A DNA stretch of 64,000 bases from an uncultured Acidobacteriota bacterium (GTDB lineage Bacteria > Acidobacteriota > Vicinamibacteria > Vicinamibacterales > CAVPJW01). The notes below the pieces were generated by a model, which saw nothing but the letters and a program-made list of their open reading frames with translations, had not been told where the DNA came from and searched no databases. The stretch lies in NCBI GenBank assembly GCA_963826865.1, contig CAWGYQ010000009.1:14570-78569 (forward strand), written 5' to 3'. Below are positions 19,571 to 61,570 of the stretch, one piece after another; position 1 is the stretch's first letter, and each line of letters opens with the position of its first letter. The position numbers were made by a program, and so were the translations under genes.

Positions 19571-19583
19571 CCACCGAGGACCC

Positions 19584-22767: not shown

Positions 22768-22851
22768 CGGTCGATCAATCTGAGATGGGCCCGCCCCGTA
22801 CCGCGTCACACATCGTGCGCGGTAGGGGGCGAGCCCAAACAACCAGGGGAA

Positions 22852-30063: not shown

Positions 30064-30098
30064 TAGCGGTGCGCGGCGGCGAGTGTCAAGGCTCGAGG

Positions 30099-45049: not shown

Positions 45050-45087
45050 GGAAGAAAGTATAGTCTCTGGCGTTGGAGGGGACGGCT

Positions 45088-45549
45088 GTGACCGAGATCG
45101 AGCGCATCCAGGATCAGATCCGGCGGGTCTACGAAGGCGACGCGTGGCACGGCACGTCCACGCACGAGATCCTCGCGGGCGTGCCGGCGGCCGTGGCGGT
45201 CAAGCGCGTGCAGCCAGCCGTCCACACCATTTGGGAGCTTGCGCTTCACATGACCGCCTGGCGCACGGTGGTCGTGCGACGGATCGAAGGCGAGGCGGTC
45301 GAGCTGTCACACGAGGCCGACTGGCCGCGACGACAGGGAGAAACCGAGGAAGACTGGCGACGGATCCTGGACGAGCTCGACCGCAGCCAGGAACGTCTGC
45401 TCGATGCGGTGGGCTCGATGACCGATGCCCGTCTGGGCGACGCCGTACCGGGCAAGGATTACGACTATTACGTGATGCTGCAGGGCATCGTGCAGCACGA
45501 TGCCTATCACGCGGGCCAGGTGGCGCTCATGAGGAAGCTCCTGGCGTAG
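45088..45549 (+). CDS. DinB-family (DinB_2) metal-dependent protein
   Basis: WHGTSTHEIL...HTIWELALHMTAW...GIVQHDAYHAGQVALMRK (His triad). Start moved from the TTG at 45073 to the GTG at 45088, which has GGAGG 8 nt upstream. Confidence 0.75.
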   Translation: MTEIERIQDQIRRVYEGDAWHGTSTHEILAGVPAAVAVKRVQPAVHTIWELALHMTAWRTVVVRRIEGEAVELSHEADWPRRQGETEEDWRRILDELDRSQERLLDAVGSMTDARLGDAVPGKDYDYYVMLQGIVQHDAYHAGQVALMRKLLA

Positions 45550-45579
45550 TGAGGCGGGGCCACCCGCTATAATCGGAGC

Positions 45580-46990
45580 ATGCGTTTCTCATTTTTGCTC
45601 CTGTCCCTTGCTCTCGTCCTCTCGCCACGCGAGGCCCTCGCCCAGGTCGATGCGCCGTCGCAGGCCCTGGCGCGCGAGATCTACAAAGAACTCGTCGAAA
45701 TCAACACCACCGATTCGGTGGGCGACAACACGGCCGCGGCGAACGCCATGAGCAAGCGGCTGCTCGCCGCAGGGTTTCCTGCCGAAGACGTCCGGGTGCT
45801 GGGGACCCAGCCACGCAAGGGCAACCTGGTGGCGCGCCTGCGCGGAACCGGTGCCCGCCGGCCGGTTCTGCTCCTGGCGCACCTCGATGTCGTCGAGGCG
45901 CGAAAGGAAGACTGGTCGGTCGATCCATTCGTCTTCCTCGAACGTGACGGCTTCTTCTACGGGCGCGGCACCTCCGACGACAAGGCGCAGGCGGCCATCT
46001 GGATCGCCAATCTCATTCGCTACAAGCAGGAAGGCTTCATGCCCGATCGCGACCTCATCGTCGCGCTGACGGCCGACGAGGAAGGCGGCGACTTCAACGG
46101 CGTGAGCTGGCTGCTCGAACACCATCGCGATCTGATCGACGCGGCGTTTTGTCTCAACGAGGGCGGAGGCGGACAGATCAAAGGCGGGAAGTACCTGCTG
46201 AACGAGATCCAGGCGAGTGAAAAGGTGTACCAGAGCTTCAAGCTGGAGGTGCGCGACTCGGGCGGCCACAGCTCGCTGCCCCGCCCCGAGAACCCGATCT
46301 ACAGACTGGCTGCGGGCTTGACCCGTATCGCGCAGTTCACGTTTCCGGTGACGCTCAACGAGGTGACACGAACGTTCTTCGAACGCATGGCACTGCTCGA
46401 ATCCGGCCAGCTGGCATCCGACATGCGTGGCGTGATCGCGCCGACGCCCGATCCGGCTGCCGTCGCGCGCCTGTCGAGCTCCGCGTACTACAACGCCCTG
46501 CTACGCACGACGTGCGTGGCCACCCAGCTTCTGGGCGGGCACGCCGAGAACGCGTTACCGCAGCTGGCTACCGCAACCGTCAACTGCCGCATGCTCCCGG
46601 GCTCGAAGCCTGAAGACGTCAAGGCAACGCTCGTCGGCGTCCTCAACGATGCGCGGATCACGGTGACGCCGGTGGCCGAATCGAGGCCCAGCGATCCTTC
46701 GCCGCTCTCCGCCGATGTGATGGGCCCGGTCGAAGCCGTCACGAACAGCATGTGGCCCGGCATGCGGGTGGTGCCGACGATGAGCACTGGCGCGACGGAC
46801 GGACTGTTCCTCCGCAATGTCGGCATTCCAACATACGGTCTGTCCGGTCTGTTCGAGGACATCGACGACACACGGTCGCACGGCCGCGACGAGCGGATGG
46901 GCGTCAAGCAGGTACTACGACGGGCTCGAGTTCCTTTACCGACTGGTCAAGGCGATGTCGTCGGGCCCAGCCTCGTCTCAGCATCGCTGA
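45580..46990 (+). pseudogene. M20-family metallopeptidase (secreted), C-terminus displaced by a +1 frameshift at ~46912
   Basis: LLLAHLDVV, GRGTSDDKAQ, ALTADEEGG, SGGHSS. After ...HGRDERMGVKQ the conserved tail YYDGLEFLYRLVKAMS continues in the next frame and stops at 46988-46990. An extra g sits in cag-g-tac. Confidence 0.8.
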
Positions 46991-47024
46991 GTCGCCTGCC
47001 GCCTCAGGAACGTCTCGCGCGACC

Positions 47025-47750
47025 ATGCACCGCGAGTACCACCGCTGGCATTCTCCGCGCCTGGCGCGCGACATGGGCCTGATGGTCTACGGTCACTGGG
47101 GCCCGCCGATGCTCGCCTTTCCGACAAGCGGAGGTGACGAGCGGGAGCTGGAACAACAGGGCATGATCGGCGCCCTCGCCGATTTGATCGATGGCGGACG
47201 CGCCAAGGTGTTCAGCGTGGGCAGCGTCAACCAGGAGTCGTTCTACAACCGCTCGGCCCACCCCGCCCACCGAAGCTACGTGCAGGTTCAGTTCGACGCG
47301 TACGTGCGCCACGAAGTCGTGCCGTTCATCGAGAATCACTGCCAGACGCGGGGGATCGCCGTCACCACGATGGGAGCGTCGTTCGGCGCGTATCACGCGG
47401 CGAACACGCTGCTCAAGCATCCCGAGATCGTCAAACGATGCTTCGCGCTGTCGGGAATCTACGACCTGAGACGCTTCATGGACGGGCACTCCGACGACAA
47501 TTTCTATTTCAACAACCCCATCGACTATGTGGAAGGGCTCGACGATCCGACCGTTCGCCTGCACCTTTCGACCTGCGAGATTCGCCTGGCCACGGGATCG
47601 GGACCGTGGGAAAACAGTGTGCCGACCTACGCCATGTCGGCCGCGCTGACGAGCAAGGGCATCGCACATCACCTGGACGACTGGGGAAGCGAAGGCGGAC
47701 ACGACTGGCCCTACTGGCAGCGCCAGATGCGTACGTACCTCGGCGGATAG
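47025..47750 (+). CDS. Putative esterase-family (esterase D/PF00756-like) serine hydrolase
   Basis: MHREYHRWHSPRLARDMGLMVYGHWGPPMLAFPTSGG...; nucleophile elbow GASFGAYHA; ...GGHDWPYW. Start is the ATG at 47025 within ORF 46752..47750. Confidence 0.7.
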   Translation: MHREYHRWHSPRLARDMGLMVYGHWGPPMLAFPTSGGDERELEQQGMIGALADLIDGGRAKVFSVGSVNQESFYNRSAHPAHRSYVQVQFDAYVRHEVVPFIENHCQTRGIAVTTMGASFGAYHAANTLLKHPEIVKRCFALSGIYDLRRFMDGHSDDNFYFNNPIDYVEGLDDPTVRLHLSTCEIRLATGSGPWENSVPTYAMSAALTSKGIAHHLDDWGSEGGHDWPYWQRQMRTYLGG

Positions 47751-47846: not shown

Positions 47847-48845
47847 TCACGGAGCGTGACGTCCCAGTCGGGTCAGGGCACTATTCAGGAACGTTCGATC
47901 GGCAAACACCGGCGCGCGATCGTAATCGGGCAGCACTCCTGCGCGCGCGAAAAAGTCCGCCGTTCGCTTGACCTGATCATCGTCGAGCCCCCCGTCGACC
48001 GGCCAGATCCCCGATTCCACGTACTCACGCGACACCGCCGCCAGATCCTCGCCGGTGTTCAGGAACGCCGCAGCTTCCGATGCCAGGCGCTGATGATCAC
48101 CTGCGATGGTCCTGAAGGCTTGGAGGCAGGCCTCGATGTACTCCTGCACCATGTCCGGATGCGCGCGCGCGAAGCCGGTGTGAGCAAACGTCGCGCGCAT
48201 GACCATGCCCGGCCAGCGGACGCCGAAGTCCTGAAGAACGGCGAGCTGCCGCCCGGTTTGCATCTCTATCGCGAGCGCATCCGATCGCTGGACCACGGCG
48301 GCGTCGACGGCACCCGCCAGCAGCGATGCCGTGCGCGTCGCGGAGCCGGGAATATAGATGAGAGTTGGAACCGCCTCCGGGCACTCGTCAGCCAGATACG
48401 CGCGCAGGAGAATCGTGCCCGACGATCCCGGGCTGTGCAGGCCGATGCGTCCTCTCGCCAACCCGGCGCAGGTCGCGGTTGCAGGCGCCACGAGCACGTT
48501 GTTGTCGAGGGCGTCCTGCAGCACGGCAACGACCGGGGCGCCCTTGACGGCGGCCGCCCACAGAACACGCGTCGAGCCCAGGAGGAAATCGGCATCGCCC
48601 CGGGCGATGGCGGCCGCAGCGACCTCCGGCTGCGCATAGTAGGTGGTGGTCACCACATGGCCGCGCTCCCCCAGCGAGCGATGAGCCATGAGGGTGGGCG
48701 TGTCGGCGAAATTGATGGCCGACGAGAAGGCCACACGCAGCGGAGGTCGCTCCTCGCGCACCTCCGAAGAGCACGACGCGACGAACAGAGCGAGGGCGGC
48801 ACCGCGCGCCAGGACCGAGCGGCGCAAAGATCGGCGCGGGGTCAC
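47847..48845 (-). CDS. NMT1/SsuA-like periplasmic substrate-binding lipoprotein (paralog 1, most divergent)
   Basis: Lipobox ALFVAS-C. Type-II PBP-like layout shared with the paralogs at 50460 and 51476 (LRVAF...TPTLMAH...GDADF...VLVA...GLHSPGSSG...AGAVDAAVV). ATGA overlap with the upstream gene. Confidence 0.65.
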   Translation of the reverse strand: MTPRRSLRRSVLARGAALALFVASCSSEVREERPPLRVAFSSAINFADTPTLMAHRSLGERGHVVTTTYYAQPEVAAAAIARGDADFLLGSTRVLWAAAVKGAPVVAVLQDALDNNVLVAPATATCAGLARGRIGLHSPGSSGTILLRAYLADECPEAVPTLIYIPGSATRTASLLAGAVDAAVVQRSDALAIEMQTGRQLAVLQDFGVRWPGMVMRATFAHTGFARAHPDMVQEYIEACLQAFRTIAGDHQRLASEAAAFLNTGEDLAAVSREYVESGIWPVDGGLDDDQVKRTADFFARAGVLPDYDRAPVFADRTFLNSALTRLGRHAP

Positions 48846-50425
48846 GACGACGCCGCGCCCGCGTAATGGAGCGCGAGAATCTTCGACGTCGAGGTCGCGT
48901 ACGGATCGCGGCGTGCGATACGCAACGTGTCACCATCTCGCCAGCGATCCGCCATCATGGCCTGCGCCGGCCCGCCGCGGGCGAGCGCATCGAGGACCGC
49001 CGCGCGGATCTGCTGCTCGTCGATCTCGCCCAGTCGTGGACTGACGAGCAAATCGACTCTCGTGAGACCGTTTTCCTCCGTCTCGACGAACTGGTAGTCG
49101 GTCGGGTTGCCTCCAAACGCTGCCGGCAGCACGCGATCGATGACGTCGAGGAGCTCTTCGCCGATGAAGTGCATGCCTTCGCTGGTGAGCTTCTCGTGGC
49201 TCCGAACGTGATGGAGATGTCGAAGGAATCCGAGCTCGTCGAGGCCGCAGCCACAACGCCTCTGCGTCACCTTCGCGTAGTCGCCGCTGTCGACGTTCAA
49301 CATGATCTTGGGCGAGGCGGGGTGGATGGTCGTGAGAAAGAGCGCGTCCACGCGCGCCCCGCCGCCCACTGCCAGCGGACGCTGAATCATGGCCAGTTTG
49401 TGCTCGAGAAAATGCACTTCGTCGAGTGCGGCGGGTGACGCGCACGCCAAGCCGATCCGGCCTACCTCGGCCATCGAGTAATGAGCGAAGGCCCCCGCGC
49501 CGGCTTCGGCGATCACGCGCGCCTTGCCGTCCGTATAGGGCTCGCCGCCCGTGCGGAACAGCGACCCGGCGATGTCAAGACCGCGATCAAGGGCAGTCCG
49601 GCAAACGCGCACACACGTTGACACGCTGGCATCGAGCAGCGCGGGCTCGCCGAGCGACTTCTGATGAGCGAGCCACGTGGCCACGCGCCAGGCCTCTTCC
49701 AGCCGCGTGTAGCGGGGCCACGGCACGGCGCCACCCAGAGCCTGGCCGGTGAGGGCGGAGAAGATGGTCAGCACACTGTGGCGCGCGTTTCCCTGACGGA
49801 ACGATATCGGCTGCTGGGTGAACCAGCGCCGAAGCGGACGGCCCTGCTTCGCTCGGCGAAGCGCGGTCTTGAGCCCGGCGGAGCCGGGAGGTACGGGACG
49901 CCACATCCCTGCCGGCCGCGCGAGGCCCTCGATGGTCTTGGCGACGACCATTTCAACGCGCGCTTCATCCGACAGCAGAGCGAGATCGAGCACCATGCGC
50001 CGGCGCACGCCGCGCGATCCGCCGGACGACAGCGTGAAATCGCCGGCGATGAGGGCGTTGTCGAAGCTCGTCGGCGAGACTTCGATGTCGATCCCGGGCC
50101 GGCGAATGGGGTGGCGGCCTTTGAACTCGGCGAGGCTCAGACGCACGCCCGCGTTGTAAAGGCGTTCGAGCGCGCTTTCGACCCCGTCGCGCTCGACCAG
50201 CGGCACGACGTCACCCAGTTCCACCCCTGCGTGCCTGAGAAGCGACAGGTAAGGACTCGTTGGCTGTCGGAAGACGGCGTGGTCGAGCAGCCGCAGAAAG
50301 GCCGGGCCGCGATCGGCGATTGACTGGCGAATCGGCTCGTCGATCGAGTCGGGGTCGATCGGGGTGGCGAGATAACGCACGAGACCGCGCGCATAGCGCA
50401 GTCCCATGGCGGCGGATGCAAGCAT
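48842..50425 (-). CDS. Hypothetical protein, possibly a divergent adenylate-forming enzyme (PaaK/coenzyme-F390-synthetase/GH3-like)
   Basis: 527 aa. SSGGSRGVRRR sits where the ANL/PaaK P-loop (SSGTTGxP) would be. TGGEPYT-, HYSMAE- and C-terminal EKLTSEGMHFIGEELLDVI...YQFVETEENGLTRVDLLV resemble a PaaK-type C-terminal lid. By-eye only. Confidence 0.35.
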   Translation of the reverse strand: MLASAAMGLRYARGLVRYLATPIDPDSIDEPIRQSIADRGPAFLRLLDHAVFRQPTSPYLSLLRHAGVELGDVVPLVERDGVESALERLYNAGVRLSLAEFKGRHPIRRPGIDIEVSPTSFDNALIAGDFTLSSGGSRGVRRRMVLDLALLSDEARVEMVVAKTIEGLARPAGMWRPVPPGSAGLKTALRRAKQGRPLRRWFTQQPISFRQGNARHSVLTIFSALTGQALGGAVPWPRYTRLEEAWRVATWLAHQKSLGEPALLDASVSTCVRVCRTALDRGLDIAGSLFRTGGEPYTDGKARVIAEAGAGAFAHYSMAEVGRIGLACASPAALDEVHFLEHKLAMIQRPLAVGGGARVDALFLTTIHPASPKIMLNVDSGDYAKVTQRRCGCGLDELGFLRHLHHVRSHEKLTSEGMHFIGEELLDVIDRVLPAAFGGNPTDYQFVETEENGLTRVDLLVSPRLGEIDEQQIRAAVLDALARGGPAQAMMADRWRDGDTLRIARRDPYATSTSKILALHYAGAASS

Positions 50426-50459
50426 GAGATGGCGGCCGCCCTTTGGCCCGCCTCAAAGT

Positions 50460-51479
50460 CTAGTCCATGGTGTTTGCAGCAGCGCGTGTCACGCGTCCGA
50501 TTGCCTGAAGCACGCGATCGAGGAAGGAGCGGTCGACGAACGCCGTCGCGTCGGCGTCGGGAGGGAGACTGCCGGCTCGGACGTAGAACTGCCGCGTGTC
50601 TCGGACCGACTCGGGCGTCATCCCTCCATTGACGTCCCAGGTGTCCGCACGCACGAATTGAGTGGCGGCAGGCAGCAGATCCGTGTCGCTTCCCAGCAGA
50701 GTGCTCGCAACAGCGGCGAGCCGCGCCGGATCGCCGCCGATTGTGCGATGCGCCGACAAACAGGCCGCGATCATGTCGTCCACCGCCTGAGGATACGCGC
50801 GCGCGAACTGCCGGTTGACGATCAAGCCGGTAGTAGCCACGTTGGGCCAGCGCCGCGCAAAGTCCTCGATCAACCCGATCGACTCCGGTGCGCGACGCTC
50901 TGTTTCAACGACGTGCTCACGCATGAGCGTGGCGGCATCGACAGCGCCCGCCAGGAAGGCCGCTGCACGGTTGGCGGGGCCGATCATGATGAGCATCTCG
51001 GGCTTCGTGCCCGGGCATTCCTCCGCGATGTACGCCCTCACGAACGCCCCGCCGATTGCGCCCAGACTGTTCAACGCGAGCTTTCGTCCCGCCAGATCGC
51101 GACACTGCACGATCGAGCGTGAGGCGACCAGGAGGTGAGTGTTGCGCGCCTGCTCCATGACGGTCACGACGGGAGCGCCTCGTGCCGCCGCCGCCCAATA
51201 GGTCGGGAGCGCACCGAACGCGACGTCGGCGTGGCCACCCGCCAGCGCCTCCGCGGCCAGCTCGGTTTGCGCGTAGTGGGTGCTTTCGATCTCGTAGCCC
51301 TGCTCGACGAGCCGCTGCGCGGCCACGAGCGCGGGTACGTCGCTCATGTTGGGAGCCGTCGTGCCGGCGACCCGAATGAGCGTCGAGCCCGGGGAGCGAG
51401 CGCTCCGCTCGCAGCCAGAACCAATCGCAACGGCCAGCGCGCAGGCGAGGGCGCCGGCTCTCACGGGGAAGGCCGTCAC
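50460..51479 (-). CDS. NMT1/SsuA-like substrate-binding lipoprotein (paralog 2)
   Basis: Lipobox AIGSG-C. About half of the residues are identical by eye to paralog 3 (…EQGY.IES..YAQT.LAA.ALA.G..DVAFG...TYW.AA.RGAP...VME.AR...LVAS...). Confidence 0.7.
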   Translation of the reverse strand: MTAFPVRAGALACALAVAIGSGCERSARSPGSTLIRVAGTTAPNMSDVPALVAAQRLVEQGYEIESTHYAQTELAAEALAGGHADVAFGALPTYWAAAARGAPVVTVMEQARNTHLLVASRSIVQCRDLAGRKLALNSLGAIGGAFVRAYIAEECPGTKPEMLIMIGPANRAAAFLAGAVDAATLMREHVVETERRAPESIGLIEDFARRWPNVATTGLIVNRQFARAYPQAVDDMIAACLSAHRTIGGDPARLAAVASTLLGSDTDLLPAATQFVRADTWDVNGGMTPESVRDTRQFYVRAGSLPPDADATAFVDRSFLDRVLQAIGRVTRAAANTMD

Positions 51480-52513
51480 GACGCAGGCACGGCGCGAGAC
51501 GGTTGCCGCCCGACGACATCGAGTGCGCGATCCAGAAAGCTGCGGTCGATCATGCTGTCCGGATCGGTGTCGGCCGGCACCGCCCCGGCCCGAGCGAGAA
51601 ACTGCACGGTCCTGGTCATGACGTGCGGCGTCAGGCCACCATTGAGATCCCAGGAGTTGGCCTGCACGAACGCCGTCGCCGTCGGCAGATAGTCCTTGTC
51701 GCCGGCGCCCAGCAGGGATTGGGCCAGGCGTGCCAGCCGCACCGGGTCGTGAGCCACGGCGCGATGTTCAGCAAGACAGGCGATCACGAGATCGTCGATG
51801 CTCTGCGCATGAGCACGCGAGAACGGCACGTTGACCATGACACCCGTGATGGCGATATCCGGCCAGCGAATGCCGAAATCTTCGACCAGCCCGATGCGGT
51901 CGGGAGCGCGCTGCTGGATCTCGATGAAATCCTCACGCATGACGGCAGCCGCATCGACGGCCCCCGCGAGAAACGCGGCCAGCCGTGTGGGCGATCCCGG
52001 CATCACCAGCACATGAGGCTCGGTACCGGAGCATTCCTCGGCAAGATAGAACTTGAGAAGCGACGCGCCGCTGGCGCCCAGCCCGTTGACGGCGAGCCGT
52101 CTCGCCGACAGGTCCGAGCACTTGGTGATGGGCTTGGATGCCACCAGGACGTGGTGGATGCGCGCCAGCTCCATGACCGCCGCGATCGGCGCACCGCGCG
52201 AAGCCGCAGTCCAATAGGTGGAGAATCCTCCAAACGCGACGTCCACGTCGCCAGCGGCGAGCGCCTGCGCCGCCAGCGCGGTCTGGGCGTAGTCGATGCT
52301 CTCGATCAGGTACCCCTGTTCTTTGAGGCGTCCAAGGGCCGCAATCGCCGGCACGTCGGCGAACGTCGCGGTGTTCGCGATGCGAAGCCGACGCGGAGAG
52401 TCCCCGGCCTTTCTGCTTTCGCTCGCGCAGCCTTCGGTGAGCCCCAAAAGCGCGACAGCAGCGAGAACCCCCTGAAAGGTCGCCGAAGGGTGGCGGCGAA
52501 GGATCGGCACCAT
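51476..52513 (-). CDS. NMT1/SsuA-like substrate-binding lipoprotein (paralog 3)
   Basis: The 711-aa ORF 51476..53611 is trimmed to the ATG at 52513 (MVPILRRHPSATFQGVLAAVALLGLTEG-C). The upstream part of that ORF overlaps the M29 gene out of frame. ATGA overlap with paralog 2 (51476-51479). Confidence 0.7.
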   Translation of the reverse strand: MVPILRRHPSATFQGVLAAVALLGLTEGCASESRKAGDSPRRLRIANTATFADVPAIAALGRLKEQGYLIESIDYAQTALAAQALAAGDVDVAFGGFSTYWTAASRGAPIAAVMELARIHHVLVASKPITKCSDLSARRLAVNGLGASGASLLKFYLAEECSGTEPHVLVMPGSPTRLAAFLAGAVDAAAVMREDFIEIQQRAPDRIGLVEDFGIRWPDIAITGVMVNVPFSRAHAQSIDDLVIACLAEHRAVAHDPVRLARLAQSLLGAGDKDYLPTATAFVQANSWDLNGGLTPHVMTRTVQFLARAGAVPADTDPDSMIDRSFLDRALDVVGRQPSRAVPAS

Positions 52514-52515: not shown

Positions 52516-53559
52516 CTACTCCATCCCCAGACGGTCGAGCAAATATTGCCCCCTGACGATGACCGGCTCGTCGTCCAACCACACATTGCAGTCGCGGGTC
52601 AGGACGTCGATATGGGTCGAGGAGTTCCACTGCGCGCCCGTCTGAGTGCCGTAAGGATCCCCGAAGGCCAGATGAACACCCGGGAACTTCTCGTCCTGGA
52701 GCAGCACGCCGATGAACTCCGTCAGGCCGAGATTGGTGCCGAACGCCAGCTCCCCCACGCGATCGCTGTTCTCGTCGGTGTGGCAATACTCCCAGAACTC
52801 GTGCTCGAGCTCGGTGCGCTCCGAGCGGGCTTCGACGAGACGGCCCCCTTCGATCGTCAGCACCAGTGGTGTCGCTTTGAGATCGCCGTACTTGCGGTTG
52901 AAGTAGTCGCCGGCCGTGGCGTCGCACACGAACGTGCCGTCGACGCGGCCCGGGGTCGTGAAGACTTCCCCCGCCGGCAGATTCGACCAGTACCGCGGGC
53001 TGATGAGACCGCTCGTCTTGATCCACGCATGCGAGGCGTCGAAGCGCGCCGTGAACGCCGTGCCGGCATCCGTTCTCACGCTCAACGATTGCGCATGGGC
53101 GAGCCGCGCCAGGAGCCGATCGCTCAGCCGATCGATCCGGCGGTAGTCGGCGCGCATACCCTGCTCCATGATGGCGGGAGTGACGCCGATCATGTGCGCG
53201 TAGCGGATCTGACATCGCTCGACGACCGCCACGATCGCCATGCGTGACGACAGCTCGCCCTCGAGAGGCTGGATGCAGAGGATCCCGACGTCGGCCCGTT
53301 CCAGCGCGTCCAGCACTTCGACGGGCGGCTCGCTCAGAGGACGCGGCGCCAGGTCCTCGAGCACACAGCCCGTCCAGGATGCGCCTCGGTCGGTGAGCGC
53401 ACGGGACAGGGCCGCGGCGACTTCGAGGCTGGCTTCGTCGGCGATGAGGGCGACGCGCTCGCCTGCCTGAACGGCCAGACACGTCTCGATAGCGTTTCGG
53501 GCACCAGGCAGCAGCGCCGGATTCAGCGGCGCAAGTGACTCCGTCGTGCGATCGCTCAT
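52516..53559 (-). CDS. M29-family aminopeptidase (AmpS/PepS/aminopeptidase T-like)
   Basis: Start at the ATG at 53559 (ATGA overlap with the upstream stop). LPAGEVFTTP, VGELAFGTN, LLQDEKFPGVHLAFG, NSSTHIDV motifs. Confidence 0.8.
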   Translation of the reverse strand: MSDRTTESLAPLNPALLPGARNAIETCLAVQAGERVALIADEASLEVAAALSRALTDRGASWTGCVLEDLAPRPLSEPPVEVLDALERADVGILCIQPLEGELSSRMAIVAVVERCQIRYAHMIGVTPAIMEQGMRADYRRIDRLSDRLLARLAHAQSLSVRTDAGTAFTARFDASHAWIKTSGLISPRYWSNLPAGEVFTTPGRVDGTFVCDATAGDYFNRKYGDLKATPLVLTIEGGRLVEARSERTELEHEFWEYCHTDENSDRVGELAFGTNLGLTEFIGVLLQDEKFPGVHLAFGDPYGTQTGAQWNSSTHIDVLTRDCNVWLDDEPVIVRGQYLLDRLGME

Positions 53560-54929
53560 GACCGTTCGTGCCCGGTCCACTCCGAGACGACGAAGGCTGG
53601 CACCTGGCCACCCCCGGAGCTCACATTGGCCAGGCCCGTCGCGCTCAGCCGCGTCAGAAAACCGGACAGCCGACCGCGAAACAAGTACGGCGCCAGATCG
53701 ACCAGCACGTCGCGCATCGCAACCGGGTGTCCCGCCTCGAACTGCGGAAAAATCTCGCGTCGCACGGGAATGCGCTCCTGGACCACCCACGCGCCCGTTT
53801 CCCCGCCCGTCGCCGTCTCGATGGTCCGATCCCAGAGAGCCTCGCTCGTCTCCCAGCCCAGCGTCACCCCGTGGCCGCCGTAGTCGTCATTCGGCTTGAT
53901 CACCAGCGTTTCCCGGCGCGAGCGCACGAAGGGCAGCAGATCGATCTCCTGCTCGCCGTAGTGGGTCCGCGTGTCTCGAAGAAGTCTGGTCCACGGAATG
54001 TGATCGCCAATCAGCCCGCGCTCTTCCTGGCTGAACAGACGGCGGTTTCGCTCGTCGGTCAGCACCGCGAAGAACGCCTTCTTGTGCGGGATCTTGCAGC
54101 GCAACGTGTTGGCCATGCAGATTGCGCGCGACCGGTAGGCCTCGATCAAGGCCCCGGACTCTTCCGGACGCGCGATGATGTCGTTGATGAGCACGCGGCG
54201 GTACACCAGGTCGATCGGCTGGCCGAGCGCCGTCAACCGCTTCCCGTCGAATTCGAGGTCGCGCGGATCGCAGACGATCGTCGGAACGCCGCGGGCGACA
54301 AACCGATCGCGGAGGATCTCGAACTCGGACCAGGTGGGCACTTCGCGCCAATCGACGATCGCCACGAGCGGCGGCGACTTGGTGCCGCCCCACTCGCGAT
54401 AGCTGGCGAGCAACGCCTCGAGCATCGAGGCCGAGAGCGGGTAGCTCTGTGTGCCATACCTCTCGCGGAAGCGCGCCATGATCTCGAGCGGATCGAACAG
54501 CTCGGCGAGCGTCTCCGTATAGCCCAGGCCCGCGGGCGACTCGGCGTTGTACTCGGCGAATTTCAGCGCGTCAGGCAACAGGAAGGCGTCGAGCCTCGAG
54601 GCCGTGCTCGCCGTGCCGTAGCCGGGGTCGAGGCGGACGAGCCGCTCCTCGGCGTCCGTCAGGGCGAACTGGCCGAGCAGATCCGGGTCCTGGAGCGCTT
54701 CGTTCGTGACGCGCTCGCCGATGGCGGCCAGCGCTTCCGCGACCCGGCGCACGCGGCGCTCGTCGGCGGCATCGATGAAGAAGGGGCGGAGGAACGGACA
54801 GTGCACGCGCCCGCCGAATGTCAGGCGCGCCCCGCGCATCCTGCCCGTAAGTTCCTCGCCGAAGCCGGGAGACAGCTCCACGTCCTCGCGGAGGAGCGAC
54901 TGCCAGTAGGACGCGGCCGCGGGCATCAT
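53556..54929 (-). CDS. ATP-grasp-superfamily amidoligase, glutathionylspermidine-synthase (GspS/YgiC)-like or circularly permuted ATP-grasp-like
   Basis: Start at the ATG at 54929 (ATGA overlap). SRLDAFLLPDALKFAEYNAESPAGLGY (pre-ATP-grasp motif R.D....g.lK..EyNa.sP), VIKPNDDYGGHGVTLG, WVVQERI, LVDLAPYLF, TRLSATGLANVSSGGGQVPAFVV. Confidence 0.55.
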   Translation of the reverse strand: MMPAAASYWQSLLREDVELSPGFGEELTGRMRGARLTFGGRVHCPFLRPFFIDAADERRVRRVAEALAAIGERVTNEALQDPDLLGQFALTDAEERLVRLDPGYGTASTASRLDAFLLPDALKFAEYNAESPAGLGYTETLAELFDPLEIMARFRERYGTQSYPLSASMLEALLASYREWGGTKSPPLVAIVDWREVPTWSEFEILRDRFVARGVPTIVCDPRDLEFDGKRLTALGQPIDLVYRRVLINDIIARPEESGALIEAYRSRAICMANTLRCKIPHKKAFFAVLTDERNRRLFSQEERGLIGDHIPWTRLLRDTRTHYGEQEIDLLPFVRSRRETLVIKPNDDYGGHGVTLGWETSEALWDRTIETATGGETGAWVVQERIPVRREIFPQFEAGHPVAMRDVLVDLAPYLFRGRLSGFLTRLSATGLANVSSGGGQVPAFVVSEWTGHERS

Positions 54930-55894
54930 CGGCCTTGCGGGGCTCCGACGAACCCGGACGACGCGGCCAGGCCGAGCATCTCCTCCCAGCGAGGCCACGC
55001 CTGGCCAGGCTGGCCGTTCAGCGCGCGGTCGATCACGAGGTCGGCCATCTTCTTGACGACGAGATCGAAGTAGAACGGCGTGATCCGATCGCGCTCGAAG
55101 TCGGGCGCCGGGTTCAGGAAGTCGATCGCATATGGCACATCGTCGCGAATGGCGAACTCGATCGTGTTCATCTCGTAGCCGAGCGCCGTGTTGAGGATTC
55201 GGGCGTCGCGGACGACGCGCTCGCCGACGTCGGCGGAGAGATAGTGGTGGTCCACGATATAGCGCCGATCCCGGACGTCGTACGCCACCGGCGTGATGTC
55301 GGTCTTGCCGAACGTGAAGCACCGCACGTACTGGTTGAAGTCGATGAATTCCTGGAGCGTCATGCAGTACGGCGCCGTGCGATCGTAGGCGGCCAGCAAT
55401 TCCTCCCGGTTTCGCACCTTGTAGACGTGCTTCCAGCCGCCGCCGGAAAACGGCTTCAGGATGGCCGGCCGTCCCACGTAGTCGAGCAGAGCATCCCAGT
55501 CGACGGGGTACTCGAGATTGCGCAGCGATTCGGGCTGAATGTCCACGTCGGCCGGATAGGCCTTCTGCGGCAACAGCACGGTACGCGGCACGGCCACACC
55601 GAGCCGCGAGGCGACCGAGTAATTGAAGAACTTGTCATCGGCCGACCACCAGAACGGGTTGTTGATCACATACGCGCCGTGCAGCACGGCGTGCTTGAGA
55701 TACCCGCGGTAGAAGTCCACTTCGTGCGAGATGCGGTCGACGACTACGCGGTATTCGGCGAGCTCGCCCAGCCGCACGCCGCCCAGCCGCACCAGCTCGG
55801 CCGTTACGTCGTGCTCGCGGCCGAGCGTGTTCACCGCGTCGAGGAATGCGGACGGAAACGAATGCTCCCGTCCGCACAACAATCCAACCTTCAT
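54926..55894 (-). CDS. ATP-grasp domain ligase (RimK/GshB-like size, 322 aa)
   Basis: AILKPFSGGGWKHVYKVRNREELLAAY, MTLQEFIDF, YVRCFTFG, NTIEFAIRDDVPYAIDFLN. ATGA overlaps on both sides. Confidence 0.7.
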   Translation of the reverse strand: MKVGLLCGREHSFPSAFLDAVNTLGREHDVTAELVRLGGVRLGELAEYRVVVDRISHEVDFYRGYLKHAVLHGAYVINNPFWWSADDKFFNYSVASRLGVAVPRTVLLPQKAYPADVDIQPESLRNLEYPVDWDALLDYVGRPAILKPFSGGGWKHVYKVRNREELLAAYDRTAPYCMTLQEFIDFNQYVRCFTFGKTDITPVAYDVRDRRYIVDHHYLSADVGERVVRDARILNTALGYEMNTIEFAIRDDVPYAIDFLNPAPDFERDRITPFYFDLVVKKMADLVIDRALNGQPGQAWPRWEEMLGLAASSGFVGAPQGR

Positions 55895-57022
55895 GCGGTC
55901 CCCTTCGAAGCCACACTGTGACGATCGAGCACGCGCGTCTCCTGCACGACGTGCTGCACGACGGCGCGCAGGTCGCCGGTTTCACGATAGACGCGAAGCT
56001 GGCGGTCGGCGCTGGTGCCCTCGGCCAGAATCGTGTGGACGTAGCTCACTTCCTCGCGGCTCCCGAGCTCGTCGAGCGACATCGTCCACAAAGGCCAGGA
56101 GCTCGAGCGTCAAATCTCGCATCGGCACCTCGGTGCGCTTGCCGAAGTCGATGAGGTTGCCGTCCAGGCCGTAGCGCGAGGCGCGCCACTTGTTCTCCTC
56201 GATGAGCGCGCGCCGGTAGAGCCGGAAGCCCAGGTTCTTCTCGTAGAGCTTGTGGAGCTTCACGATGATGGCCTGGATGAGCGCGGCGATCGCGATGGTC
56301 TCTTCGACGCGAGTCGGGAGATCGCAGACGCGGAACTCGAGCGTGCCGTAATAGGGATGCGGCCGCACGTCCCACCAGATCTTCTTGCCATCGTCGATGC
56401 AGTGGAGATCGGTGAGCAGCTTGACGAAGTTCTCGTACTCGCTCCACGAGCCGAAATGATCCGGAATGCCCGTGCGCGGAAATCGCCGGAAGACGGTGGC
56501 GCGGTACGACTTCAGGCCGGTGTCCCGTCCCATCCAGAACGGTGAGCTCGTCGAGAGCGCCAGCAGGTGCGGCAGGAAGTACCGCGCGGCGTTCATGAGA
56601 TCGATTGTCGTGTTCTTGTCGGGCATCGCCACGTGGACGTGCAACCCGAAGATGAGCAGTGAGCGGGCGAGCTGCTGCAGCTCTTCGACGATGTGCTTGT
56701 AGCGCTCGCCGGGCGAGATGACCTGATCGATCCAGCTCGAAAAGGGATGAGTGCCCGCCGCCGCCACGCAGAGGCCGACATTCTCGGCGGCCGTGACGAG
56801 CTGCTCGCGGTTCTTGGTGAGCTCCACGCGCAACTCGTCCATGTCGGCGCAGATATGCGTGCCGACCTCGACGATCGACTGGTGCAGCTCGCGCCTGATC
56901 TGCTCGCCCAGCGTCTTCGCGCTCGATTCGATCAGGTGCGTGACGTGCGAGCGCAGCTCCCACGTCTCGGGATCGACGATCTGAAACTCTTCCTCGACGC
57001 CTAGCGTGAACCGATGTGACAT
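55891..57022 (-). pseudogene. Carboxylate-amine ligase, YbdK/GCS2 (glutamate-cysteine ligase family 2), interrupted by a +1 frameshift at ~56080
   Basis: MSHRFTLGVEEEFQIVD..., ELHQSIVEVGT, GLHVHVAMPD, WWDVRPHPYYGTLEFRVCD. After ...LLAFVDD the conserved tail SLDELGSREEVSYVHTILAEGTSADRQLRVYRETGDLRAVVQHVV continues in the frame of ORF 55891..56091. Confidence 0.85.
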
Positions 57023-57075: not shown

Positions 57076-58683
57076 ATGCCTGCTTTTCGAATCCGCGCGC
57101 GCGCAGCGCGGGGCTACGCGAGCGGACCCGCGTTCGAAACCAATCCCGAGGTGCTGCAGGCGTTTCTGGAAGACGCGGCTCACCACGCCGGTGGCCACGC
57201 CGCCTCCATCGCCTTCCCCACGACCGAAGCGGAGGTCGTTGCCGCCCTCCACGCCAGCCGACGCATCCTGCCGATCGGCGCGCAGTCGTCTCTGACCGGC
57301 GGCGCCACGCCGGATGGCGACACCCTGCTCGGCTTCGCACGCATGAATCGGATTGTGGAGATCGACCGCACGCGTGTTCGGGTCGAGCCAGGCGTGCCGC
57401 TCCAGACGCTGCAGGAGACACTCGACCCGCATGGTCTCTGGTACCCGCCTGTCCCGACCTTCGCCGGCGCGTTCGTCGGAGGGACGGTGGCCACCAACGC
57501 CGCGGGAGCGGCAACATTCAAGTACGGCAGCACGCGCGCGTGGGTGGACGCGCTCACAGTCGTGCTCGCGTCTGGCGATGTACTCGATCTCACTCGGGGC
57601 GAGGTCGTCGCGAGCCCCGACGGGCATTTCGAGATCGACACCCACCACGGGCGAATCGACGTCAGGGTCCCCACCTACAGGATGCCGGACGTGCCCAAGC
57701 GATCGGCCGGCTACCATGCGGCGCCTGGCATGGATCTGGTCGATCTGTTCGTCGGCTCGGAAGGCACGCTGGGTATCGTCACGGAAATCACACTGCGCGT
57801 GTTGGACGCCGTCCCATTGAGATGCCTGGCGCTGGTGCCTGTGTCGAGTGAAGCCGATGGATTGAAGCTGGTGTCGATACTGCGCACCGAATCGCAGAAC
57901 ACCTGGAGGGGCGATTCACGTGGCATGGACGTGAGCGCGATCGAGCACATGGACCGCCGGGCCATCGAAGTCCTCGTCGAGGACGGCCACGACCGGCGCC
58001 TGGGCGTGAGCTTTCCCCCGGCCGCTGCCATGGCCCTGCTGGTGCAACTCGAGCTCCCCTCGGGCACGACGGCCGAGCGCGCGTACGCGGAGATCGGGAG
58101 CGCACTCGATTCCAGCGCGCCGGACACGCCTCTCGTCCGCTTCGCGAGAGTGCTGGAGGAATTGGGCGCACTCGATTGCACCGAGATGGCGATGCCGGGC
58201 GACGCTCGACGCCGCGAGCAGCTGCTCGCCGTGCGTGAAGCGGTGCCGACGTCGGTGAATCACCGGGTCGCCTTGGCGAAGAGCTGGATCGATTCGACCA
58301 TCTCGAAAACTGCCGCTGACGTCATTGTGCCCTTCCACCGTTTTGCCGACATGATGGCGCGAACGCGCGAGGCCTTCGAACGTCACGGCCTTGACTACGC
58401 CGTCTGGGGCCACATCTCCGACGGCAACGTGCATCCCAATCTCATCCCGCGGTCATTGGCGGACGTACGGGCCGCTCATGAAGCGATTCTGGAGCTGGGA
58501 CGCGACGCGATCATGATGGGAGGATGTCCGCTGGCCGAGCACGGGGTCGGCCGAAGCCCGCTGAAGCAACGGTTGCTCGTCGAGCTCTATGGAAGCGAGG
58601 GAATCGAGGAGATGCGCCGCGTGAAGCGCGCACTCGATCCCGAATGGAAGCTGGCGTCCGGAGTGCTGTTCCCGCCGATGTAG
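57076..58683 (+). CDS. FAD-linked oxidase (GlcD/D-lactate dehydrogenase-like, FAD_binding_4 + C-terminal oxidase domain)
   Basis: AFPTTEAEVVAAL...ILPIGAQSSLTGGATP, RVEPGV.LQTLQE, GGTVATNAAGAATFKYG, GSEGTLGIVTEITLRV, C-terminal GCPLAEHGVG. Divergent from the ligase operon (53-nt spacer). Confidence 0.8.
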   Translation: MPAFRIRARAARGYASGPAFETNPEVLQAFLEDAAHHAGGHAASIAFPTTEAEVVAALHASRRILPIGAQSSLTGGATPDGDTLLGFARMNRIVEIDRTRVRVEPGVPLQTLQETLDPHGLWYPPVPTFAGAFVGGTVATNAAGAATFKYGSTRAWVDALTVVLASGDVLDLTRGEVVASPDGHFEIDTHHGRIDVRVPTYRMPDVPKRSAGYHAAPGMDLVDLFVGSEGTLGIVTEITLRVLDAVPLRCLALVPVSSEADGLKLVSILRTESQNTWRGDSRGMDVSAIEHMDRRAIEVLVEDGHDRRLGVSFPPAAAMALLVQLELPSGTTAERAYAEIGSALDSSAPDTPLVRFARVLEELGALDCTEMAMPGDARRREQLLAVREAVPTSVNHRVALAKSWIDSTISKTAADVIVPFHRFADMMARTREAFERHGLDYAVWGHISDGNVHPNLIPRSLADVRAAHEAILELGRDAIMMGGCPLAEHGVGRSPLKQRLLVELYGSEGIEEMRRVKRALDPEWKLASGVLFPPM

Positions 58684-58690
58684 CGCCGGC

Positions 58691-60565
58691 CTACGACCCG
58701 CCTTTGCTGCCCAACCACTCTTCTCTGAATTTTTTCTGAGCCGCTGTCAGCGAGCGGTCAGTGGACTCGACCGTCACGATCTCGCGGCGCGGGTCGGGCT
58801 CGAGCGTGACCGATGCGGCAACCCGCTGACCGCCGCGGCGTCGGTAGGTGATTGGCACGATCTCGCCGGGTGCGCGGCGCCGCAGCACTCCATCGAGCCG
58901 GCTGCGATCCGTCAACGCCTCGCCGTCGAGCGTCGCGATCACATCGTCCTGATCGAGGCCGGCCTGATAGGCTGGCGAACCAATCGGCGTCGGTGCATCG
59001 ACGCGGGCTCCGTCGGCCGAGAAGTCCAGATTCAGATCGCCGATCCATGCGGCGCGCGGCGATCGCGCGACGAGCGCGAGCCCGGCACGCGACAGGAGAC
59101 GCTCGTAATCCGGCACCTCGTGTCCCGCGACGTAGCGGTTGATGAACGCCTCGGCGAAGGCGGCATCTCCGCTCACCGCCGCGAGACGCGCCGTCACGTC
59201 TTCGGCCGTGTAGGGCCGATCGACGAATCCCGGTTGACGGCCACCGGGCTTGCCGAAGTTCGTCCACAGATCGCGCTGGAGGTCGTCGAGCGTCACCCGC
59301 CCGTCTGTCCGATCCCGGAGCGCCAGGTCGAGGCCCAGGCCAATTGCCGCGCCCCACGTGTAGTAGGAGATAAAGGTGTTGCCCCAGTTGGTGCGATCAA
59401 CCGCGCGGGCCTCGTCGACGAGCGGCGCCAGACGGCTCATCTCTTGCGCGCTGCGAATGCGACGGGCCGGCGAATTGGTCACCTGGTTGATGAGGCCGGC
59501 GAAGTCGGTCAGGGTCTCGGAAAGCGACTGCAGCCTGGCGCGGTGCATCACCAGCAGCTCGTAGTAGCTGGTGACGCCCTCGGCGAGCCACAGCTCGGGC
59601 GACATGTTGGCGTCGGCCAGATTGAACGGTTCCAGCGAGCGCGGGCGAATCCGTTCGACGCTCCAGCCGTGAAACAACTCGTGCGCCGCATTCGACAGGA
59701 TCGCCGAGCGAGCGCTGGAATCGGCGGGCGAGCCGGGAACGGTGATGATGGTGCTGTTGCGATGCTCCATGGCGTCGCCGTCGGCCCACGGCAGGCAGTC
59801 GGCGAGAAACGTGTAACGTCCGACATCGTAGCGGGGGAACTCGCCGAAGATAGCGCCCTCTTCGCGGGCGATCTTCTCCAGGTCCGACGCCAGGCGGATG
59901 GCGTCGTCGTCGGAGCCACCATGGAGCGCCAGCCGGAAATCGGTGCGGGCCGTCCCGCGTGTGACGAAGAAGTCACGCACGGTGTGCCGCGACACCTCGA
60001 TCGGGCTGTCCATGAGGTACTGGAGGTTGGGCGCCGTGAACGTCAAACCGTCCTCGCCCGCGAAAAGCTGAGTGGCCACGCGCCAGTCCGACCCTGGCGG
60101 CGGCTCGATGGCGACGCGCGAGGGACGATCTTCGAGCCCGCGCGCCCACATCAGCGCAGCCGGCATGTTGATGTGAGCGTGCGTCGAGTCGACCGCGAGG
60201 TAGGTGCCGTCGAGCTGATCGCCGTACACCTTGTAGCGCACGCGCACGGTGCCGCCGTGCCCGGCGACCCGCCATTCATGGAGACTGGGTCGCGTAATGC
60301 TCACGCTTCGATCCCCGCCACCGACGATGACCACGTCGTAGACGTTCTTTGCGAATTCGTGCAGCGCGTAGCGTCCGGGCGAGCTGCGGCTCATGTGCAG
60401 CTCGAGATCGGCATCTCCGATCTCCGGAAACGTCACCTCGACGTGCATCGTGCGGTGCTCGGCGTCCGGAAAGGTCAGCCGGTAACCGACCGGCGTCTGG
60501 GCAAGAGCCGGCAGCGCCCACACGCCCCACAGAACGGCAATCGCAGCGATTCGTATCAACGGCAT
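58691..60565 (-). CDS. M61-family glycyl aminopeptidase with C-terminal PDZ domain, secreted
   Basis: Signal peptide; SSPGRYALHEF; zinc motif AAHELFHGWSVERIRP; C-terminal PDZ-like GSPAYQAGLDQDDVIATLDGE. Confidence 0.85.
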   Translation of the reverse strand: MPLIRIAAIAVLWGVWALPALAQTPVGYRLTFPDAEHRTMHVEVTFPEIGDADLELHMSRSSPGRYALHEFAKNVYDVVIVGGGDRSVSITRPSLHEWRVAGHGGTVRVRYKVYGDQLDGTYLAVDSTHAHINMPAALMWARGLEDRPSRVAIEPPPGSDWRVATQLFAGEDGLTFTAPNLQYLMDSPIEVSRHTVRDFFVTRGTARTDFRLALHGGSDDDAIRLASDLEKIAREEGAIFGEFPRYDVGRYTFLADCLPWADGDAMEHRNSTIITVPGSPADSSARSAILSNAAHELFHGWSVERIRPRSLEPFNLADANMSPELWLAEGVTSYYELLVMHRARLQSLSETLTDFAGLINQVTNSPARRIRSAQEMSRLAPLVDEARAVDRTNWGNTFISYYTWGAAIGLGLDLALRDRTDGRVTLDDLQRDLWTNFGKPGGRQPGFVDRPYTAEDVTARLAAVSGDAAFAEAFINRYVAGHEVPDYERLLSRAGLALVARSPRAAWIGDLNLDFSADGARVDAPTPIGSPAYQAGLDQDDVIATLDGEALTDRSRLDGVLRRRAPGEIVPITYRRRGGQRVAASVTLEPDPRREIVTVESTDRSLTAAQKKFREEWLGSKGGS

Positions 60566-61570
60566 CTACTCCGCGCTCTTGGGATCGTCGTGTCGCCTGT
60601 GCCTCGCAACCACGCACAGCAGCTCGAAGAGGAGGTTCGCGGCCAGCAGTGAGGTGATGTGTCCCGGACCGTCGAACACCGGCGCCACCTCGACGACGTC
60701 GAAGCCGACGAGGTCGATGCCGGCCAGGCCCCGCAGGAGCCGCTGCGCTTCGTGCGACGTCAAGCCGCCGATTTCGGGCGTGCCCGTGCCGGGCGCGAAG
60801 GCCGGATCCACGGCATCGATGTCGAACGTCACGTAACACCGGCCTGTCGCGACCCGGCGCACGGCGTCGATGGTAGCTTCCACGCCGCGCTTGACCTGAT
60901 CGATGTCCACAACCGTGATGCCGTGCTCGCGGTGAAAGTCGAAGTCGTCCTCGCCGTACATCGGCCCCCGGATGCCAACCTGGATGAACCGTTTCGGATC
61001 CACCAACCCTTCTTCGATCGCCCGACGGAACGGCGTGCCGTGAAAGTATTTGGTGCCGAAGTACTCGTTCCACGTGTCGATGTGCGAATCGAACTGCACG
61101 AGGCCGACGGGTCCATGCGCCCGGGCCAGCGCTCGAAGCACGGGCAGCGAAATGCTGTGGTCCCCGCCAATGACTGCCGGTAGCGCGCCGGCTTCGATGA
61201 CGGAGGCGACGTGCCGCTCGATCACCTCGTAGCACTGCTCGATGGCAACAGGAGGGGCGTCGATATCACCCGCGTCCACGATGTTCAGGCGCTCGAACGG
61301 CGCAGTCTTCTGGAAATAGCTGTAGGGCCGGATGAGCGATGACTGGGCGCGGATCTCCCGCGGACCCAGCCGGGCGCCAGGACGGTAAGACGTGCCGCCG
61401 TCGAAGGGCACTCCGAGAATGGCCACGTCCACACCACGAAGGTCGGTGACGTGCGGCAGACGCATGAAGGTGGCAGGCTGAGCGAACCGCGGGGACTTGA
61501 ACGACTCGCGGGGTGTGAACGTCATCTGGTTCCAGTTTACTGGAACCCTTTTGTATCTTTGCTCCATCAT
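60566..61570 (-). CDS. speB: Agmatinase / ureohydrolase (arginase family)
   Basis: ATFMRLPH, GVPFDGGTSYRPGAR.GP, GGDHSISLP, FDSHIDTW, TFDIDAVDPAFAPGTGTPEIGGLT. The start may instead be the ATG at 61525, because the 61570 start leaves only 11 nt to the divergent permease gene. Confidence 0.8.
   Translation of the reverse strand: MMEQRYKRVPVNWNQMTFTPRESFKSPRFAQPATFMRLPHVTDLRGVDVAILGVPFDGGTSYRPGARLGPREIRAQSSLIRPYSYFQKTAPFERLNIVDAGDIDAPPVAIEQCYEVIERHVASVIEAGALPAVIGGDHSISLPVLRALARAHGPVGLVQFDSHIDTWNEYFGTKYFHGTPFRRAIEEGLVDPKRFIQVGIRGPMYGEDDFDFHREHGITVVDIDQVKRGVEATIDAVRRVATGRCYVTFDIDAVDPAFAPGTGTPEIGGLTSHEAQRLLRGLAGIDLVGFDVVEVAPVFDGPGHITSLLAANLLFELLCVVARHRRHDDPKSAE

Follow-up and report, generated by a model that had tools for sequence, protein, structure and literature searches.

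Among the closest known systems to the one considered here are the CP_ATPgrasp_2 (PF14403) gene neighbourhoods, reportedly covered in the 2009 amidoligase survey by Iyer, Abhiman, Burroughs and Aravind (Mol Biosyst 5:1636). The Pfam entry of this family reportedly names as its partners a GCS2-like COOH-NH2 ligase and two peptidases, one of the alpha/beta-hydrolase fold and one of the M20 family, and such partners are present at the locus described below. Operons of GCS2 and ATP-grasp ligases with peptidases have, as a kind, already been predicted by comparative genomics; the particular cassette reported here, from a 64,000-nucleotide stretch of an uncultured Acidobacteriota bacterium (contig CAWGYQ010000009.1, positions 14,570 to 78,569; hereafter the window), is uncharacterised, and no experimental study of it was found in the literature searched. 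Operon-linked amidoligases of different folds usually catalyse successive ligations that lead to peptide metabolites, cofactors or storage polymers (PMC4431377), and the characterised enzymes with the permuted ATP-grasp fold discussed below (glutathione and homoglutathione synthetases, GspS, YgiC/YjfC and Cp1B) join small carboxylates to amino acids or amines (PMC12568646).

Three ligase genes follow one another on the minus strand of the window between 57022 and 53556. They encode a YbdK/GCS2-type carboxylate-amine ligase (GCS2, gene 1; 55891..57022, with its ATG at 57022 and its TGA at 55891), a classical ATP-grasp ligase of 322 amino acids (grasp2, gene 2; 54926..55894) and a circularly permuted ATP-grasp ligase of the CP_ATPgrasp_2 type, 457 amino acids in length (CPgrasp, gene 3; 53556..54929). 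An earlier note on this stretch had claimed a trio of consecutive amidoligases at 53556-57022, and the trio proved to be real: Pfam, NCBIfam and fold comparisons place the three proteins in the superfamilies that it named, with intact catalytic motifs. The direct translational coupling that it proposed was borne out by ATGA start/stop overlaps at both ligase junctions (55891-55894 and 54926-54929), and its coordinates were correct, though it had left out a further coupled gene, for an M29-family metallopeptidase-like protein of 347 amino acids (52516..53559, minus strand), which overlaps the CPgrasp gene in the same way at 53556-53559. In the order of transcription the coupled set reads GCS2, grasp2, CPgrasp and M29, with an ATGA overlap at all three junctions. 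A PF00756 'putative esterase' alpha/beta-hydrolase of 241 amino acids is encoded on the plus strand (47025..47750) and converges on the end of the operon. The window has a G+C content of 66%, and from 47.8 to 57.0 kb codon-position GC assigns the coding frames to the minus strand. The unit exceeds the trio: with the coupled M29 and the co-conserved PF00756 hydrolase it is a synthesis-plus-hydrolysis module, which we read, with moderate confidence, as a cytoplasmic and self-contained one in which a non-ribosomal peptide (amide) is both built and recycled, presumably as a small intracellular peptide or conjugate. We infer the order in which the enzymes act, their substrates and the kind of product they make.

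In a scan that covered each GTDB species by one genome, at least 596 homologous loci were confirmed, and the best 80 of these were examined. Loci with a grasp2 at least 65% identical form a close subgroup and those at 50-57% identity a distant one. The close subgroup comprises Acidoferrales/Acidiferrum, subdivision 2 and 6 Acidobacteria and one metagenome-assembled genome (MAG) labelled Dormibacterota; a locus labelled Limnocylindria (L004) came from a separate contig look-up. GCS2, grasp2 and CPgrasp were adjacent and in the order of the window in 30 of the 31 close loci with enough flanking sequence, and M29 was also there in 27 of the 31, with outer flanks of the cassette that varied from one close locus to another. 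Among the distant loci, the order grasp2-CPgrasp-GCS2 was found in Blastocatellia and Chloroflexia, and grasp2-GCS2-M29 in one Terriglobia MAG. Since the close loci keep this adjacency almost without exception and the ligases occur together again in other orders in distant lineages, the adjacency of the ligases is beyond chance. No exporter was conserved with the cassette across the compared loci, and an Rfam gathering scan of 10 loci revealed no riboswitch or RNA leader upstream of it, giving a single tRNA only. Genes for GlgC, enolase and an aminotransferase, found upstream of many Acidoferrales cassettes, were judged to be lineage synteny and were set outside the system.

Clustering of all neighbouring open reading frames (ORFs) revealed the PF00756 esterase as a fifth recurrent partner. 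Of 38 close loci, 29 have its gene just after M29, in convergent orientation. In three Chloroflexota MAGs (Caldilineaceae/Anaerolineales; L044, L045 and L047), in Chloroflexia (L058) and in Terriglobia (L068) it shares the strand of grasp2 and lies immediately upstream of it. The esterase-led orders include esterase-grasp2-CPgrasp-GCS2 in Chloroflexia and esterase-grasp2-GCS2-M29 in Terriglobia. This hydrolase co-occurs with the ligases over rearranged layouts in Acidobacteriota, Chloroflexota and the Dormibacterota-labelled MAG.

Several other layouts were encountered in the compared loci. An additional ATP-grasp protein of approximately 400-500 amino acids, with weak similarity to ATP-grasp_4 and Dala_Dala_lig_C, adjoins the cassette downstream in seven loci (L001, L007, L008, L021, L033, L040 and L048), which suggests that some lineages have a fourth ligase; in six of the seven (not in L040) it is accompanied by another PF00756 esterase, distinct from the first. 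In a Caldilineaceae locus (L044, 4198-9289) grasp2 is placed between the esterase and a polysaccharide deacetylase, with a subtilase carrying a glycogen-binding CBM48 domain upstream and neither GCS2 nor CPgrasp nearby. In Pyrinomonadaceae (L057, 827-9855, with approximately 14 loci alike) a longer grasp2, of 401 amino acids, is followed by a different alpha/beta-hydrolase, and CPgrasp is encoded on the opposite strand, approximately 5 kb upstream, with an HtrA-like protease and a sigma factor in between.

The identity of gene 1 as a YbdK/GCS2 enzyme, already suggested from its translation, stands. It matched Pfam GCS2 (PF04107) with 215.7 bits (cut-off 21) over the whole of the model (positions 1-291 of 291), passed the NCBIfam equivalog NF010039 'carboxylate-amine ligase' (474.7 bits, cut-off 371) as well as TIGR02050 (316 bits, cut-off 176), and was matched by the structure of Escherichia coli YbdK (1r8g) with E = 2.5e-53. 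The GhExE signature of the Mg/ATP site in the GCS2 family (PMC2588565) is found as GVEEE, within LGVEEEF at residues 7-13 counted from the ATG at 57022 (12-18 of the ORF that opens with TTG at 57037). All of the glutamate--cysteine ligase equivalogs scored below their cut-offs for gene 1, i.e. NF010043 (347 bits against 409), NF010042 (256 against 427), NF010044 (244 against 437), NF010045 (221 against 395) and TIGR02048 (53 against 249), and so did the subfamily model NF010041 (275 against 332).

The GCS2 ORF as assembled shifts frame near 56077 through one extra G (1 nt). A 98-99% identical relative (L003) is without this base and carries an extra C of its own 30 nt downstream (approximately position 8880 of L003), together with many split genes. 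Because each of these near-identical loci has a different indel, 30 nt apart, both are probably assembly errors, and the GCS2 gene is most likely intact, with a predicted product of approximately 376 amino acids once the spurious base is removed. The differing single-base insertions and the split genes of L003 suggest long-read assembly indels, and further ORFs of the window may be broken likewise.

Gene 2 had been described as a GshB/RimK-type ligase, of which the fold stood and the family did not. A Pfam scan of grasp2 gave zero families at E <= 0.01, the RimK and GSH-S_ATP models included, and the protein remained far under the cut-offs of the RimK family model TIGR00768 (38.4 bits against 143.4) and of the LysX model (19 against 276), failing the GshB family model too. 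Its AlphaFold 2 (AF2) model (predicted local distance difference test score, pLDDT, 78) shows a classical three-domain ATP-grasp fold, and Foldseek returned Ddl, LysX/ArgX, RimK and MdnC as its neighbours (E of approximately 1e-10 to 1e-11, template modelling (TM) score of approximately 0.6, probability 1.0). Across 37 grasp2 homologs there is no variation in the ATP-binding lysine K147, the G151-G153 loop or the Mg ligands (E246, D258 and N261), all of which align with the Ddl motifs. With the RimK, LysX/ArgX and Ddl class grasp2 thus shares the three-domain fold, the KP...GGG loop and the E/D/N Mg ligands; unlike that class, it has no Pfam match and falls well short of the RimK and LysX models. 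Conservation within the module is highest for grasp2, at 75-80% identity across annotated orders; its homologs make up at least 8000 clusters, the best 120 of which are 75-87% identical, and no plasmid-borne relatives turned up. On these sequence comparisons, grasp2 forms a very conserved family of its own, apart from the RimK and LysX models.

Gene 3, proposed earlier as GspS-like, agrees with that proposal in its fold and in one motif. The AF2 model of CPgrasp (pLDDT 92) is a circularly permuted ATP-grasp, for which Foldseek placed eukaryotic glutathione synthetase (2hgs, TM 0.71/0.69, E = 1.7e-17; 8fbz, E = 4e-19) and homoglutathione synthetase at the top, followed by YjfC, YgiC, the type-1 permuted 3n6x, GspS, trypanothione synthetase and the fungal E-64 ligase Cp1B; the GspS/YgiC/YjfC group (7uk6, 7uk8 and 2io7) was matched with E of approximately 1e-14 to 1e-15 and TM scores of 0.56-0.70. 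The motif SRLD...E-x-N-A-[DE]-[ST]-P is present, SRLD...AEYNAESP of CPgrasp aligning with SRLD...ENNADTP of YgiC. Family models did not follow the fold: GSP_synth (PF03738), the glutathione synthase family and CHAP were all without a match in the Pfam scan of CPgrasp, its family profile compared by hhalign was not significant with YgiC (8.6% probability, in the N-terminal motif region only) or with human glutathione synthetase (2.8%), and the sole match of its profile against PDB sequences was 3n6x (E = 0.035). The window protein scored 26.6 bits with CP_ATPgrasp_2 (PF14403), under the cut-off of 32, and most CPgrasp homologs at 63-80% identity carry a precomputed match to this model. The 457 residues begin straight at the ligase domain, the N-terminal CHAP amidase of bifunctional GspS being absent.

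The human glutathione synthetase used as reference is 100% identical to 2hgs_A, and its global pairwise alignment with CPgrasp has 16% identity. In this alignment the human residues R125, D127, E144, N146, S149 and R267 correspond to CPgrasp R112, D114, E126, N128, S131 and R245, and K364, E368, G370, E399 and E425 to K345, D349, G351, E385 and D411. Nine of the aligned CPgrasp residues are invariant in the family (R112, D114, E126, N128, S131, R245, K345, G351 and D411); D349 is nearly so (a glutamate in most members), and E385 lies outside the conserved residues. The catalytic and pocket roles of the human residues are those given in the literature on that enzyme. The residues of the gamma-Glu-Cys pocket (E214, N216 and Q220) are unmatched, with V197, T199 and F203 in their places, as far as a weak alignment at 16% identity can be read. 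Because the catalytic residues align and the gamma-Glu-Cys pocket residues do not, CPgrasp is, on the modelled structure, an active-looking predicted ligase of the glutathione synthetase/GspS fold group with a putatively different acyl pocket. Taken together, the catalytic residues whose absence would have spoken against the earlier note are present in all three ligases, in the GCS2 signature, in the lysine and Mg ligands of grasp2 and in the core of CPgrasp.

CPgrasp homologs form at least 7237 clusters, the best 120 being 63-80% identical. Remote plasmid-borne relatives (23-27% identity), named 'glutathionylspermidine synthase family protein' by the Prokaryotic Genome Annotation Pipeline (PGAP), were found in two further loci. 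The Bacillus thuringiensis plasmid pSCG364 (L088) carries two tandem CPgrasp relatives with an AMP-binding enzyme and a MATE pump, and a 38-kb plasmid of Pantoea agglomerans (L089) carries a relative with EctB, ThiF, TauD, GNAT, CapA, two more ATP-grasp enzymes and an MFS transporter. By their gene content, both surroundings look like uncharacterised small-molecule biosynthetic clusters.

The two hydrolases of the module belong to different classes. The M29 protein matched Peptidase_M29 (PF02073) with 53.7 bits against a cut-off of 27, over model positions 193-353 of 406, and its PDB sequence matches were NicX (7e-8) and AmpS (0.005). Its motifs GELAFG, HLAFG and HID are invariant (E270, H296, H316 and D318) and are presumably aminopeptidase-type metal ligands. 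The window esterase matched Pfam Esterase (PF00756) with 53.3 bits against a cut-off of 22 and contains the nucleophile motif GASFG; it is 63% identical to an Acidiferrum copy (L009), tblastn showed its plus-strand position, and it had no PDB sequence match. An M20-family peptidase gene (45580..47082, plus strand; Pfam Peptidase_M20 and M20_dimer, NF006596 with 636 bits) lies directly upstream of the esterase gene. The same order is present in L003, and we consider the M20 gene a lineage neighbour. The plus-strand genes at 45073-47750 encode, in order, a DinB-family protein, the M20 peptidase and the PF00756 esterase. The M20 ORF runs 58 nt past the start of the esterase in the window, where L003 has a gap of 35 nt, which may be another indel.

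In the mechanism that we propose, the three ATP-dependent carboxylate-amine ligases would act successively on one growing product, each via an acyl-phosphate. GCS2 would activate a side-chain carboxylate, most likely forming a gamma-glutamyl (or similar) amide, CPgrasp would extend the terminal carboxylate of the intermediate with an amino acid or amine, and grasp2 would add a further residue or supply a dipeptide building block. Trimming, proofreading or recycling of the product might then fall to the two hydrolases, the M29 metallopeptidase and the serine hydrolase of PF00756. If ligation is stepwise, the linkage is expected to survive changes in gene order, as is observed here across phyla and as fits the generalisation made for linked amidoligases (PMC4431377). 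The three-step cascade of the earlier note is well supported by the linkage, kept through rearrangement across phyla, but the specific chemistry that it attached to the cascade is unsupported. Because the genes overlap in the window, a small carrier ORF between them is impossible. A free intracellular small-molecule product is favoured by the persistence of the linkage, these overlaps, the lack of a carrier ORF and of a conserved exporter, the substrates of the CPgrasp fold group and the plasmid clusters of the CPgrasp relatives.

Several points weigh against a dedicated small-molecule pathway. The chemistry, for product and substrates alike, is wholly our inference. In Pyrinomonadaceae and Caldilineaceae grasp2 is often apart from the other two ligases, and since it is separate from GCS2 and CPgrasp in many distant carriers it may also work alone. 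The extreme conservation of the grasp2 sequence would equally suit an enzyme recognising a conserved macromolecule, and its best structural neighbours include the protein modifiers RimK and LysX/ArgX. At the other end, a bolder version of the small-molecule proposal, which we judge unlikely, would see in the product an unknown, widespread gamma-glutamyl compound of soil Acidobacteriota and Chloroflexota, a glutathione-like cofactor or a cyanophycin-like store, with CPgrasp in a bacterial sister group ancestral to the eukaryotic glutathione synthetase.

Among the alternatives, a glutathione-like thiol pathway would have GCS2 form gamma-Glu-Cys, an ATP-grasp enzyme extend it to a tripeptide and the GspS-like enzyme join this to an agmatinase-derived polyamine; we hold it to be rather improbable. 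The GCS2 family does include weak or true gamma-Glu-Cys ligases such as YbdK (PMC2588565), and the nearest structures to CPgrasp are glutathione and homoglutathione synthetases, followed by the peptide-spermidine ligases YgiC/YjfC and GspS (PMC12568646). However, GCS2 is under every glutamate--cysteine ligase equivalog cut-off, the pocket residues E214, N216 and Q220 are without a counterpart in the (weak) CPgrasp alignment, and CPgrasp is without the CHAP amidase domain of GspS. The agmatinase gene 3.5 kb away (60566-61570), which had suggested the polyamine, is genuine, but its link to the cassette was seen in the near-identical L003 alone and in 0 of the 80 other loci, and we rejected the polyamine connection as lineage-specific. 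The bacillithiol genes mentioned in the earlier note were confirmed, BshB1 (18833-19570, 261 bits) and BshA (19518-20729, 502 bits) overlapping on the plus strand, and bacillithiol has been predicted for Acidobacteria from gene content (PMC6282198). Judging from these genes, the organism probably makes bacillithiol already, which weakens the case for a low-molecular-weight thiol as the product of the cassette, because a second major thiol is not required.

It is also rather improbable, in our estimate, that the ligases add amino acids to the carboxylate of a protein or peptide, in the manner of RimK on S6, LysX/ArgX on LysW or PafA with Pup, and that M29 and the alpha/beta-hydrolase remove the tag. 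The structural likeness of grasp2 to RimK and LysX/ArgX and the extreme sequence conservation of the ATP-grasp proteins would suit such a role; PafA derives from GCS2-like ligases (PMC2588565), and related type-1 permuted ATP-grasp enzymes have been predicted in peptide synthesis or modification systems (PMC3597751, PMC3235984). The overlapping genes, however, leave no space for a conserved small carrier or tag ORF, the variable flanks show no conserved target gene, the CPgrasp relatives occur in small-molecule gene clusters, and all characterised members of the CPgrasp fold group use small molecules (PMC12568646).

We give a slim chance to a cyanophycin-like storage polyamide, whose acidic backbone would be polymerised by grasp2, decorated or primed by GCS2 and CPgrasp, and depolymerised by the serine, M29 and M20 hydrolases when nitrogen is needed. 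In its favour are the combination of three ligases with as many as three hydrolases from different classes, the esterase-grasp2 pair as the most persistent association, and the mention of cyanophycin as one product made by linked peptide ligases (PMC4431377), as well as nitrogen and arginine neighbours, i.e. amt, P-II and glnD in L004 and argininosuccinate lyase, agmatinase and an amino-acid permease in the window. These neighbours, however, are not conserved across loci, nothing indicates processivity of grasp2, a Mur-ligase-like domain is absent, and the idea is purely analogical. That the ligases are functionally independent, their clustering being inherited synteny or co-regulation, is very improbable, since many distant genomes do have grasp2 without the other two ligases nearby but the linkage is kept in at least three gene orders, several phyla and unrelated flanks, and the ATGA overlaps imply coupled translation.

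The operon of the window continues, between M29 and the esterase, into a lineage-specific 3' extension (47847..52513, minus strand), joined by GTGA overlaps and a 2-nt gap, which was found only in the window and L003 among the loci examined. It encodes three SsuA/NMT1-like lipoprotein binding proteins (52513-51476, 51479-50460 and 48845-47847), recognised with Pfam and NCBIfam, the first two with lipobox signal peptides, and a distant PaaK-like adenylate-forming enzyme of 527 amino acids (50425-48842), which matched PDB 9s3l with E = 0.002 and no Pfam or NCBIfam family. Genes for a permease or an ATPase are absent from the surroundings of the binding proteins. On the other side, a GlcD-like oxidase linked to flavin adenine dinucleotide (FAD) is divergent from the operon across a gap of 53 bp and is followed by an M61 glycyl aminopeptidase with a PDZ domain and the agmatinase (minus strand), the three spanning 57076-61570; M61 upstream of the cassette recurs in L036 and L041 only. 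Elsewhere in the window, a 970-amino-acid ORF (16018-18930, minus strand) divergent from BshB1/BshA weakly resembles, at residues 122-289, the LmbE-family mycothiol conjugate amidase Mca, and a 1005-amino-acid ORF (24240-27257, minus strand) has a strong coding signal (G+C at third codon positions, GC3, of 0.85) and no NCBIfam match. Two adjacent minus-strand ORFs at 21655-24011 both match fumarylacetoacetate-hydrolase family models, and at 28281-30141 a histidine-kinase ORF overlaps a 417-amino-acid ORF without a family; each pair may be frameshift-split.

The carriers of the cassette, which is present in at least approximately 600 species-representative genomes, are mainly uncultured soil Acidobacteriota, together with Chloroflexota and the Dormibacterota-labelled MAG. 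Knowing what the cassette makes would give the physiology of a dominant soil phylum a new metabolite or modification, probably an abundant one, and a function would follow for thousands of proteins now named 'hypothetical' or misnamed 'glutathione synthase' or 'RimK family'. The cassette could also show the origin of the permuted eukaryotic glutathione synthetase fold, and as a compact set of four coupled genes and one hydrolase it suits direct heterologous expression.

Compared with the CP_ATPgrasp_2 neighbourhoods as reportedly described, this cassette differs in having M29 and an unclassified ATP-grasp ligase, and in a CPgrasp that stays below the PF14403 cut-off. With the pathway from glutathione to glutathionylspermidine it shares a carboxylate-amine ligase of the glutamine synthetase fold followed by ATP-grasp ligases in series, a permuted enzyme with the same fold and the catalytic Arg, Glu-x-Asn, Lys and Gly-loop residues, and the pairing of a hydrolase with the synthetases, as in the amidase of GspS. 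It differs from that pathway in failing the GshA, GshB, eukaryotic glutathione synthetase and GSP_synth models (hhalign 2.8-8.6%) and in having neither a match to the gamma-Glu-Cys pocket nor the CHAP amidase; it adds a third ligase outside known families, M29 and the PF00756 hydrolase, and its host carries bacillithiol genes. Pathways of the E-64 and dapdiamide type, which are independent of non-ribosomal peptide synthetases (NRPSs) and combine ATP-grasp enzymes with an adenylating amide-bond synthetase, resemble the cassette in that standalone ligases form amides stepwise; the E-64 ligase Cp1B shares the fold of CPgrasp (PMC12568646), and the operon of the window adds a PaaK-like adenylating enzyme. 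Unlike those pathways, the cassette is without a warhead-forming oxygenase or an exporter, and rather than a sporadic secondary-metabolite cluster it is a chromosomal unit, conserved like housekeeping genes.

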